A DNA stretch of 64,000 nt from Tubiluchus corallicola (GCA_030141605.1 JAQGDQ010000086.1:305418-369417), one strand, 5' to 3'; counted from the first letter of the stretch, positions 15,001 to 17,348 are shown. The notes: generated by a model not told the origin, from the letters alone. Translations and numbers: made by a program.

Positions 15001-17348
15001 TTTTCTCATTCCGATTTCATAATCAAGTTTTATTAATATCACTCCATTTTATTTCTATATACAGTTAAGGGGGAGCAGAGAATGGGGGGTTTACTTGGTA
15101 GTATAATTATGTAAACGGGATTACAAATACCGCAATACTTACGAGAGATATGATTCTGATATTACTTGGATGACAAAAATATCTTGCATTTGAAAAACAG
15201 TACAACGTCGTTTAAGTAAAAATGATGTGCAATTGCAAAATGTGTAGTGTTAGAGTAAGCAAGAGAGGGACACTGTAGTACCTGCACAGCACTGCATGAT
15301 TTGTTTCTTATTGACTTGCATTATGTATGTATACTGCAGGAGCAATAAACCTGGAACCTAATCCTTCAATGCCTCATCATACCAAAATGTGCACATACAA
15401 ATTCATTGTTGGTTTAGCCGGTAGAATTGTGATGTTCAGTATAAAGAAAAGTTTGGAAAATATTCGTAATGGAATGCGGCAATAGAGTGCTGTTTGGCTT
15501 TAGAATGAGAATGGTTTTAAGTTTGTAATCTTAGTGAAGCAAGTAGTGTAATATCAGTACTTCTTTGTTTTATAGATTGATCAGCCAAGGCATCTGGCCA
15601 AATCTGTGACAGTAGAATAAGGTTGAGGGAAGAATAATTGTTATGCGTTGTTATGAGACACAGTATTTGTGTGTTGTAGAAGTTGAAAATATCGGCTTTC
15701 AAAGTGCTACGTACTTCTCGTTCTGGCAGATAAAGCAATCGGGTCTGCTGCTTTTACTGATTACATTGAAACAATTAAACAGATTTAGTGCTAGTTAAAT
15801 TTTGTTATGAATGAGAGTTAGTTAACTGTTCTTAGTTAAGTGCTCACATAAAGTGGTGCACCAGCTAGCTGTTGTAGAGTTAACTTCCTGGTTATGTTAG
15901 TCGTTCATTTACTAAAGCAAGCAGTGAAGTCAAATCTTGAGCTTACTGATTAGCATTTGAAGCTGCCTGTTGGTATCTAATAGCTCAACTTTTTTATAAC
16001 TGAGAACTAAAAACTTTTATATTCGCTCATTTGTTCTTGCGTATCCTGCTTATGTAGGATACCCATTTAATGCTCTGTAGTTTTTTCGAAGAAAAATGTT
16101 CCAATTGGATAAAGGAAGCATTGACAGTTTGATGAATCTGTTGTAAGTATTCATAAAAGAGTTAATAATGTGCAGGCCTTATCAACCCATGGATATCCAA
16201 ATTTAATAGAAGCACATTAATACAAAGCACATACTCTATATCCTGTAATTATTTATGTGGCAATGGTGCATAATTTTAGCAGGTAAAAAGATGTTTTTCA
16301 ACACTTGTTAACAAAAAATGTTTCTTTTTCTCTATAACCGTCTTTTGTATTCATTCTCAAATGTTGAAACTACTGTTGTTTACAGTACACGAATAAATAT
16401 GTCTCATAACAACTTATGGTGAATTAGCTGCAGTAGAATTTGTTTGTTAGCTTGTTTATGCAGAAAAATCATTATTGTTAATTTTTCATTCATCGTAATT
16501 CTTCCGCAAGTTCCTGTCTGTAAGCTTATATTTTGACTCGATAAAAAGGGTGTCTTCTTAGAAAATGCAATAATGCAATCTGTTCTTTCTCTTATTTGTT
16601 TTCATAACGTTTTCTGTAAGATTGATTACATATTTCTCTAAATAAGTGAAAAGTAAGAGTTGCTATTGTGGTCAACAGTGGTAGGACATTGAAATTGTTA
16701 ACAATGATAACTACTAATATGTAACTAGGTTAGTCATTATAATATGTATTGAAATTTACACATATTATTCAATGCTGGTCAGGAGAGCTGCATGTTTCTC
16801 AATTTTCTTTGAAATCATTTCACTTTCAACATATTTGCTATTTTTAAGTCTTCTTTTTGAATGAAAAAGAGGTGCATATTCTCTGTCAAATGTAAAATCA
16901 CCTTAGTCACGTAAAGTGACATGCCATCGCTGTATTAGTGCTAAAAGTTCTTTAACTAAATATGTTTAAACTTGATGGTGACTTGTGGTATTGTTTGCTT
17001 GAACTGGGTTGGGATGTCTGCTATATGTGTAGAATACACCTATGTAGCTTTGGGCAAATGTGTGAGCCAACTGTCTGCTTCAATTTCATTTTGATTTTTT
17101 CACGTTCTTGATTAAAATTAATCAAGTGCGAAATAAAAAACTGCAATCCACGTATGGAATAATTGAAGACTTAAAACTGTTTGCAGTTTTTTTTTTGGTT
17201 ACTTTAGTGAGTTGTTATGAGCTGATTGGTGTACTGTAAATCTGTACATTATATCTTTCTCCTGTATTTTGTGTTTGTGCATAATGAGGATGTTGTTTTG
17301 TAGGTGGATATGCCAAGAAATCTGGCTAAATCTGTCACCGTACAATAG
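1..17348 (+). CDS. GFPT: Glutamine:fructose-6-phosphate amidotransferase (GFAT/GFPT), 5'-partial, multi-exon
   Basis: Phase-consistent GT-AG exons: <1-48 ([16 protein letters not shown]), 931-1010 ([26 protein letters not shown]), 4111-4243 or 4307-4445, 8194-8264 ([21 protein letters not shown]), 8974-9066, 9973-10166 ([12 protein letters not shown]...ACGTSYHS), 11229-11349 ([17 protein letters not shown]...SQS), 12020-12177 (GETADT...[10 protein letters not shown]), 13019-13133, 13824-14080 ([16 protein letters not shown]...[11 protein letters not shown]), 14678-14878, then 15576-15620 or 17304-17348 (PRxLAKSVTV). These are hallmark GlmS/GFAT motifs. Confidence 0.98.
170..867. mobile_element. 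Non-autonomous hAT-type element (MITE) in GFAT intron
   Basis: TIRs CAGGGATGTTACCGAAA / TTTCGGTAACAGCCCTG. Near-perfect 8-bp TSD GTTTTGGT (162-169) / GTCTTGGT (868-875). Subterminal AAACCG repeats. Confidence 0.85.
1234..1248 (+). CDS. Candidate 15-nt GFAT microexon (ERSRS)
   Basis: Pyrimidine-rich tract ending CACAG | AGAGAAGTAGATCAG | GTAATT. Phase 1 to phase 1, frame-preserving, no stop. Confidence 0.6.
3076..3102 (+). CDS. Candidate 27-nt GFAT microexon (VESSSVVTP)
   Basis: CTGAC branch-like motif, then TGAAG | TTGAATCGTCTAGTGTCGTGACACCAG | GTATAC. Phase 1 to phase 1, no stop. The AAG acceptor is weak. Confidence 0.4.
4111..4243 (+). CDS. GFAT linker exon, mutually exclusive copy A
   Basis: GTCAG|...|GTGAGT, 133 nt, phase 1 to 2. 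Encodes [44 protein letters not shown](S). Confidence 0.9.
4307..4445 (+). CDS. GFAT linker exon, mutually exclusive copy B
   Basis: AACAG|...|GTGAGG, 139 nt, phase 1 to 2. Encodes [46 protein letters not shown](S). Confidence 0.9.
12822..12890 (+). repeat. Degenerate (AACTA/AACTG)n pentanucleotide repeat, possibly the tail of an old LINE 3' end
   Basis: AATAAA followed by runs of AAACT/GAACT units. The LINE origin is inference only. Confidence 0.6.
13143..13618 (+). repeat. Diverged local direct duplication in GFAT intron
   Basis: About 13143-13312 matches about 13357-13618: TCAATTTCATAC(A/C)TCTAAAAG...GAGAAA(T/C)GTGTGTC...TGAAA and TTGAATGAGT...TAGCCTTG. The second copy has an extra insertion. 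Confidence 0.75.
14272..14384. mobile_element. Short decayed hAT-type MITE, probably related to the 47080 and 48955 elements
   Basis: TAGGGGTGA...ATGCTCATCTCTG ends. Flanks CCTGGCAG / TTTGGCAG (6/8). Internal ATTCAATTCGAAT motifs. Confidence 0.5.
15576..15620 (+). CDS. GFAT alternative terminal exon 1 ([14 protein letters not shown])
   Basis: TTCTTTGTTTTATAG| acceptor, phase 0, TAA stop. AATAAA at 16392 and 17132, before terminal exon 2. Confidence 0.9.
   Translation: MDQPRHLAKSVTVE
17304..17348 (+). CDS. GFAT alternative terminal exon 2 ([14 protein letters not shown])
   Basis: TGTTGTTTTGTAG| acceptor, phase 0, TAG stop. AATAAA at 17792 and 18148. Confidence 0.9.
   Translation: MDMPRNLAKSVTVQ

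Follow-up and report, generated by a model that had tools for sequence, protein, structure and literature searches.

Homologous last exons that alternate through the use of different poly(A) sites are known but uncommon; examples are the genes for human capping protein beta and GNAO1 (PMC8373072, PMC3228551). In PGRP-LC, CG42235, and Pip of Drosophila, competing RNA pairings choose the 3' cassettes (Pan et al. 2018, PMC6191721). In Drosophila Nmnat, a stem decides whether a proximal terminal exon or a distal acceptor is used (Raker et al. 2009, PMC2724269), and long-range structure has been proposed to suppress premature cleavage (PMC8052449).

We analyzed a 64-kb stretch of DNA from Tubiluchus corallicola (the window), in which the last exon of a GFAT gene is tandemly duplicated. 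GFAT starts amino-sugar and chitin synthesis and sets the flux into UDP-GlcNAc, and thus into chitin and glycosylation. The proximal copy is called T1 and the distal copy T2; S1 and S2 are two sites that are each predicted to pair with a third, D (Table 1).

As in known C-terminal exon duplications, T1 and T2 are homologous last coding exons in tandem, in the same phase, with one shared donor and their own 3' regions. They differ from the known cases in that the swapped piece, only 14 residues long, includes the catalytic Lys of an enzyme of core metabolism, the use of T1 being our prediction. The main texts of PMC8373072 and PMC3228551 do not name GFPT/Gfat. The human splice variant GFAT1-L is an internal insertion, whereas the variation here is at the last exon.

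The predicted pairing shares with the type described by Pan et al. one site with two exclusive partners of similar strength, together with duplicated 3' ends. In that type, each target cassette is preceded by a selector, and the pairing affects splice sites (PMC6191721); here the predicted shared site lies between the exons, on a putative AAUAAA, with S1 after the T1 stop and S2 before T2. The layout, if real, would work like that type, but because there is no selector upstream of each cassette, we do not assign it to the type. Nmnat resembles what we propose in having a long-range stem that sets a proximal, poly(A)-bearing terminal exon against a distal acceptor (PMC2724269); in contrast to its single stem, two competing stems are predicted here, on the poly(A) signal itself.

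Duplicated last exons and competing pairings are thus already known, and the GFAT case and the S1/D/S2 layout are apparently unreported. We found no duplicated GFAT last exon in the open-access literature (subscription papers and supplements were outside this scope) and, judging by listings of that literature, no poly(A) signal that serves as a docking site. Few parts of the enzyme are as conserved as the C-terminal tail, and a gene with two versions of it provides a natural test of which tail residues are important. The predicted three-site pairing spans little sequence (∼2.5 kb, two exons) and could be tested with a minigene. If D does prove to be the poly(A) signal, it would offer a small-scale example of long-range structures that compete over cleavage and not over a splice site. 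The locus also bears on a question left open in PMC9013439, namely whether control by competing RNA structures is widespread among tandemly duplicated terminal exons.

The GFAT gene and its two last exons

On its + strand the window carries the 3' portion of a GFAT gene with many introns. The first exon visible is at 931-1010, and the 5' part of the gene, which would include the N-terminal Cys1 glutaminase domain, lies before the window. The penultimate coding exon matched human GFAT-1 chains (E∼1e-23), and exon 13826-14080 matched Pfam SIS (E=3e-17). The catalytic isomerase motifs are kept: ALKIKE and ELKHG, which we take to hold E488 and H504 of the E. coli enzyme, are present, and LAK is in both tails. 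In E. coli, the catalytic residues of the isomerase site are E488, H504, and K603 (PMC3224219).

Table 1. Features of the locus (positions counted from the first nucleotide of the window)
Feature	Position	Strand	Remarks
Linker exon A	4111-4243	+	Homologous to B by peptide; 63-nt intron between A and B
Linker exon B	4307-4445	+	Homologous to A by peptide
Penultimate coding exon	14678-14878	+	Common to both forms; KCMNAL...HIAILRDLN; phase-0 GT donor at 14879
T1, proximal last exon	15576-15620	+	45 nt, phase 0, 14 residues, stop TAA; splicing predicted
S1, first predicted partner of D	15641-15680	+	21-60 nt past T1 stop; UG-rich
D, shared pairing site (predicted)	16378-16419	+	42 nt; holds AATAAA 16392-16397 and the following 22 nt
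S2, second predicted partner of D	17207-17241	+	63-97 nt upstream of T2 acceptor
T2, distal last exon	17304-17348	+	45 nt, phase 0, 14 residues, stop TAG; spliced in a relative
T2 3' UTR	17349-18180 (end approximate)	+	AATAAA at 17792 and 18148; covered by pieces of X2 contigs

The closest matches to the protein were scorpion and horseshoe-crab GFATs (83-84% identity over 403 residues); judged by these best hits alone, the protein would be taken for that of an arthropod, perhaps of a chelicerate. The top protein match was 84% for the penultimate exon and 79% for short fragments; a search for a close protein match to exon B found none, and a degenerate pattern for close relatives of the protein had no match in metagenomes. 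In a quick tree, built from 90 rows of 600-800 aa that were trimmed to a shared motif, the protein fell on a long branch without a supported group. Spider and bird read-through fragments break at an N/D|V point, the same place as the last intron here, so the last intron is probably old. The residues preceding the tail are DLN; elsewhere GCN is usual.

The original prediction placed two 45-nt phase-0 last exons at this locus, each with its own acceptor and 3' region, and its coordinates and peptides proved exact. AG directly precedes both exons, and the flanks are unrelated: neither the upstream nor the downstream flanks of T1 and T2 aligned better than shuffled sequences or other intron pieces. 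The duplicated stretch is limited to 55 nt (15565-15619 versus 17293-17347, 80% identity). Because the shared stretch is this short and its flanks are unrelated, an assembly duplicate or a tandem copy of the whole gene is ruled out. T1 is also unlikely to be an internal cassette: donor-like sites downstream of it score up to 8.2, near the bottom of the range for true donors (7.6-12.2), and none has a joint.

The two exons are identical at 34 of 45 nt (11/15 at codon position 1, 14/15 at position 2, and 9/15 at position 3), and they encode the only tail-like peptides in the six frames of the window (BLOSUM scores 59 and 54; the next best is 22). Each copy had been thought to depart from the consensus at one position; instead, T1 and T2 differ from each other at four residues (I/V, Q/M, H/N, and E/Q), and the Cys of the common arthropod tail is lost from both. 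The AATAAA signals attributed to each copy are present in both 3' regions, but their numbers are not above chance (2 versus 1.4 expected between T1 and T2, and 2 versus 0.8 expected after T2).

Two sequencing runs, neither of them on record as RNA, were compared with the window as contigs; the run search gave no others. Contigs of the first (X1, ∼99% alike) cover introns and show no joints, and for these reasons we treated X1 as DNA-like. The second run (X2) is from a relative and is probably RNA; 40 of the 43 differences that were listed and classed are silent, 22 further differences lie outside this count, and its contigs join nine introns. T2 is spliced in this relative: one contig (depth 160) joins 14878 to 17304 (GT..AG), crossing T1, and the X2 change at 17339 within T2 is silent. 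Pieces of X2 contigs cover 17304-17384, 17613-17687, and 17912-18154 of T2 and its 3' UTR, and the last piece ends beside the AATAAA at 18148, although contigs cannot show 3' ends. Of the two junctions proposed originally, 14878 to 17304 was thus found and 14878 to 15576 (T1) was not listed in this one spliced run; because contigs drop rare forms, the missing T1 joint does not prove that T1 is unused. Even at 80% likeness, no X2 contig covered 15058-16833, a gap to which we gave no weight. An X1 contig (15460-15826) lists no difference within T1. The switch between linker exons A and B, also proposed from the sequence, was borne out in X2, where separate contigs join A and B to the exon at 8194 (depths 83 and 51).

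Pairing predicted between S1, D, and S2

An inverted-repeat scan found a perfect 14-bp pair (15647-15660/16400-16413) and a 16-nt pair (16379-16394/17225-17240), which lie within S1:D and S2:D, respectively. The predicted S1:D duplex has 36 pairs (29 Watson-Crick; −39.9 kcal/mol), and the S2:D duplex has 32 (29 Watson-Crick; −38.9 kcal/mol). Among partners for D on the + strand of the window, S1 and S2 were the best two (−39.9 and −39.3 kcal/mol in this ranking); the next had −26.3 kcal/mol, and the mean was −10.6 (standard deviation [SD], 3.5). No partner of D was found on this strand upstream of T1.

We also computed a one-site-two-partners statistic, the energy of the weaker duplex, over the whole region. 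Its value, −37.1, was reached by none of 150 dinucleotide shuffles (mean, −24.7; SD, 2.6) and by none of 34 tiles of equal size taken elsewhere in the window. By computation, then, D is one site with two mutually exclusive partners beyond chance. The best single duplex is less special, being reached by 1 of 150 shuffles and 4 of 34 tiles. The motif common to the three sites occurs three times in the window, at S1, D, and S2 (0.00 expected, for a pattern that was built from these sites).

Each duplex would pair three to four of the six bases of the AATAAA in D, S1:D covering four. This hexamer is the putative poly(A) signal of T1, and a U/GU-rich stretch follows D at ∼16440-16465. S1:D closes the T1 3' region in both the minimum-free-energy (MFE) and the centroid folds; within it the hexamer is partly paired (P=0.65) and the 14-bp core is firm (P=0.98). 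In the equilibrium fold of 15600-17320, D pairs with S1 at 0.98 and with S2 at 0.01, and therefore a role for S2 would need kinetics or a protein.

Two possible kinds of support for the pairing were rejected. The sense-antisense energy gaps of −7.8 and −8.5 are within the background (−5.4; SD, 4.9; top 30 intron duplexes), so strand asymmetry does not speak for selection at the RNA level, and the overall folding stability of the T1 3' region is not exceptional (z=−0.94). Rfam gave no match at E≤1 across 14800-18600.

Proposed masking of the putative T1 poly(A) signal

The original prediction had coupled active-site tuning to different 3' UTRs. The unrelated 3' regions are supported; the competing pairing predicted over the putative T1 poly(A) signal had been missed, and it points to control over the choice of RNA 3' end. 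We tentatively favor, with somewhat less than even confidence, a reading in which T2 is the default, T1 is a regulated minor form, and the putative T1 poly(A) signal is masked by two competing long-range pairings. S1, being transcribed first, would pair with D as D emerges and would cover part of the AAUAAA and the bases after it. Although its acceptor is strong and near, T1 would then not be recognized as a last exon, and splicing would proceed to T2. A factor on the UG-rich S1 might leave D free during ∼800 nt more of transcription, in which time T1 could be spliced and cleaved; S2 would later capture D and close the window for T1 cleavage. S1 would thus act as the default lock, and S2 as a later lock limiting the time for T1 cleavage if a protein frees D from S1. 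The main output would probably be a swap of two unrelated 3' UTRs, with effects on mRNA level, stability, or location.

Masking is favored because both predicted duplexes would cover part of the AAUAAA and the bases after it, because S1 can pair first, and because the junction seen skips a stronger and nearer acceptor. The T1 acceptor ranks first among the 141 AGs in 14900-17400 (score 9.1; T2, 6.5; scores are from a crude matrix built on 12 acceptors of this gene). As it is the strongest in the region, the skipping of T1 needs a cause. The two duplexes are computed; that they form, and what they do, is our inference, and the direction of the effect is not readable from sequence.

The opposite direction, which seems unlikely to us, would make the pairings a toggle. 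S1:D would loop out the T1 3' UTR, bring the poly(A) signal near the T1 acceptor, bar S2, and favor T1; S2:D would clamp the hexamer between two helices and favor T2. The symmetry of the layout, with one partner beside each exon and near-equal energies, fits such a toggle, as does the partial pairing of the hexamer in S1:D beside its firm core, and in the genes described by Pan et al. each docking-selector pairing activates its own cassette (PMC6191721). However, if S1:D forms first and is dominant, as predicted, then T1 should be the main form, yet the junction seen is that of T2, and four bases of the hexamer would still be covered in S1:D.

Tail residues, the likely upkeep of T1, and the origin of the pairing sites

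Two kinetically different enzymes, deployed by tissue or moult stage and differing in ammonia channeling or in isomerase or glutaminase coupling, would be compatible with either RNA mechanism, but we consider the probability of this reading to be low. The C-terminal tail contributes residues to both active sites (PMC8041777, PMC3224219), and tandem exon substitutions often fine-tune proteins (PMC9741552). The tail motif was found in 258 of 298 fetched proteins, which include isoforms and close kin, and 209 of the 258 had one identical 14-residue tail, the common arthropod form. The tail is nearly invariant among the fetched eukaryote-type proteins, and LAK is intact in both copies. None of the 258 eukaryote-type tails had the His of T1 or the terminal Gln of T2, and for this reason both copies are unusual for an animal. 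These observations, and the four residues that distinguish T1 from T2, argue for a kinetic difference.

Against it, each variant is found at the end of full-length prokaryotic GlmS. The His tail (PRHLAK[ST]VTV[ED]) ends ∼260 prokaryotic contigs. Among 120 loci with this tail, 66 encode a full-length GlmS starting MC[GA], 40 have too little flank to score, and 8 have the exact 14-mer of T1. In 5 of 5 genomes picked from these loci (completeness not given), the His-tail glmS was the sole full glmS above the family cutoff. The terminal Gln ends ∼310 metagenome stretches, and 46 of 119 loci were full-length. In an unselected sample from a viral collection, His was found in 3 of 120 tails and terminal Gln in 0 of 120. 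The His and Gln tails are thus rare but viable. We found no report on GlmS Asn600 in the open-access literature.

The terminal Gln of T2 has a further context. The last Glu of the E. coli enzyme is locked to Arg331, where human GFAT-1 has Leu405, and the salt bridge introduced by L405R left the kinetics and UDP-GlcNAc inhibition of the human enzyme unchanged (PMC8041777). In the protein described here the aligned residue is also Leu (a mapping inferred from equal-length ranges; E=1.5). The Arg or Lys of the lock was present in 7 of 61 Gln-ending GlmS versus 48 of 72 in the Glu-ending His set, and after thinning at 70% identity in 6 of 28 versus 38 of 54, these counts being from related and not independent sequences. 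Terminal Gln thus accompanies loss of the lock Arg/Lys. A C-terminal His tag has only a small effect on the activity of human GFAT2 (PMC7948480), and the long branch of the whole protein makes drift plausible. Active-site tuning, as first proposed, keeps its footing in the absence of His and terminal Gln from the eukaryote-type tails, but it is weakened by the full-length prokaryotic GlmS with both endings and by the Leu in place of the Arg partner; we regard it as possible, not as the leading reading. Both tails probably give working enzymes, perhaps slightly different ones. A bolder reading, which we hold to be rather improbable, is that the poly(A) signal is a docking site, handed from a partner within the first of the last exons to one ahead of the second, and switches two kinetically distinct tails of the rate-limiting hexosamine/chitin enzyme; together with the A/B linker switch, it would then determine pathway flux in different tissues or moult stages.

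T1 might instead be a duplicate that is dead or on its way out and is never spliced; the pairings, if they exist, would just silence a leftover poly(A) signal. The sole joint is that of T2, on a contig that crosses T1, and a loss of function could be recent. The divergence of third positions, from which selection on both copies had been argued, is apparent in the 9/15 identity given above, but the plain dN/dS of T1 versus T2 (0.30) is not significant (Fisher P=0.17) and taken alone is consistent with a dead T1. A position-aware test counted five fully silent differences and none that destroys the AG, the stop codon, or a core residue (P∼0.011 if T1 is neutral and T2 constrained); this test is partly circular because the set of tolerated residues was drawn from tails searched after T1 and T2 had been seen. 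In simulations, the probability that T1 survived under neutrality was 0.05 for 0.1 changes per site and 0.004 for 0.2. With the top acceptor, an intact stop, and no breaking change in T1, all between unalignable flanks, and with loss of the AG or the hexamer being simpler than maintenance of two 30-bp arms, a dead T1 is quite unlikely. Both copies look maintained, and we think it quite probable that T1 is in use, likely as a regulated minor isoform.

The last alternative, also a doubtful one, is that a short DNA repeat (e.g., old miniature transposon ends) is present in three copies, S1, D, and S2, that differ in orientation and have no function in RNA processing. Such copies would yield the same complementarity, and the strand asymmetry within background agrees with this; however, the 64 kb contain no copy beyond these three, which are clustered within 1.6 kb: one at the T1 stop, one over the AATAAA, and one before the T2 acceptor. 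X1, itself ∼99% identical to the window, lists no difference in S1 or D. X1 contigs run unbroken through S1 (depth 4) and D (depth 10), unlike at 12900-13141 (depth 79), which speaks against a young high-copy element although not against an old one.

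Linker exons of the GFAT gene

Linker exons A and B are homologous and lie 63 nt apart, and each was found spliced to the same downstream exon in its own contig of X2, a run of probable RNA from a relative. The B-like version was absent from the arthropod isoform linkers inspected (0 of 30), and a database search with exon B found no relative of it. Two short segments of the linker are candidate micro-exons; the loose end of an X2 contig 5' of exon B is similar to the 15-nt one.

Features of the window outside the terminal exons
Feature	Position	Strand	Remarks
Candidate micro-exon, 15 nt	1234-1248		GFAT linker
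Candidate micro-exon, 27 nt	3076-3102		GFAT linker
Linker exon A	4111-4243	+	Joined to exon at 8194 in X2 contig, depth 83
Linker exon B	4307-4445	+	Joined to exon at 8194 in separate X2 contig, depth 51
Short AACTA/AACTG-type repeat	about 12820-12890		Within region 12800-13141
Open frame, 224 codons	21791-22465	-	Acidic and lysine-rich
Open frame, 280 codons	23911-24753	-	NF-YA domain (Pfam PF02045, E=1.5e-29)
Exon-like frames	32000-43000	-
Exon-like frames	61000-64000	+

C-termini of other GFAT and GlmS proteins

Annotated GFAT isoforms of cockroaches and spiders (P0074, P0075, P0078, P0152, and P0153) have nonhomologous C-termini in which the conserved tail is partly or wholly missing; these may be annotation artefacts. 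Among the sampled prokaryotic GlmS loci (L001-L239), a terminal Gln is associated with loss of the Arg/Lys that corresponds to residue 331 in E. coli: Arg/Lys was present in 7 of 61 Gln-ending proteins versus 48 of 72 Glu-ending proteins of the His set, as counted before thinning at 70% identity, the sole control for kinship.

Other frames and repeats in the window

The NF-YA frame is apparently intronless across its interval, and the 224-codon frame had no Pfam match. We take the minus-strand exon-like frames to be reminiscent of TTC38 and those on the plus strand of an AAK1/BMP2K-type kinase; the one piece of each searched against Pfam gave no match. The AACTA/AACTG-type repeat adjoins a stretch at depth 79 in the DNA-like run X1, where depth elsewhere is 1 to 12, and region 12800-13141 is likely a multicopy repeat. 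Two of the control tiles each contain a single inverted pair of very high strength, -56 kcal/mol in tile 10267-13688 and -70 kcal/mol in tile 52521-55942; these pairs are possibly the ends of miniature transposons.
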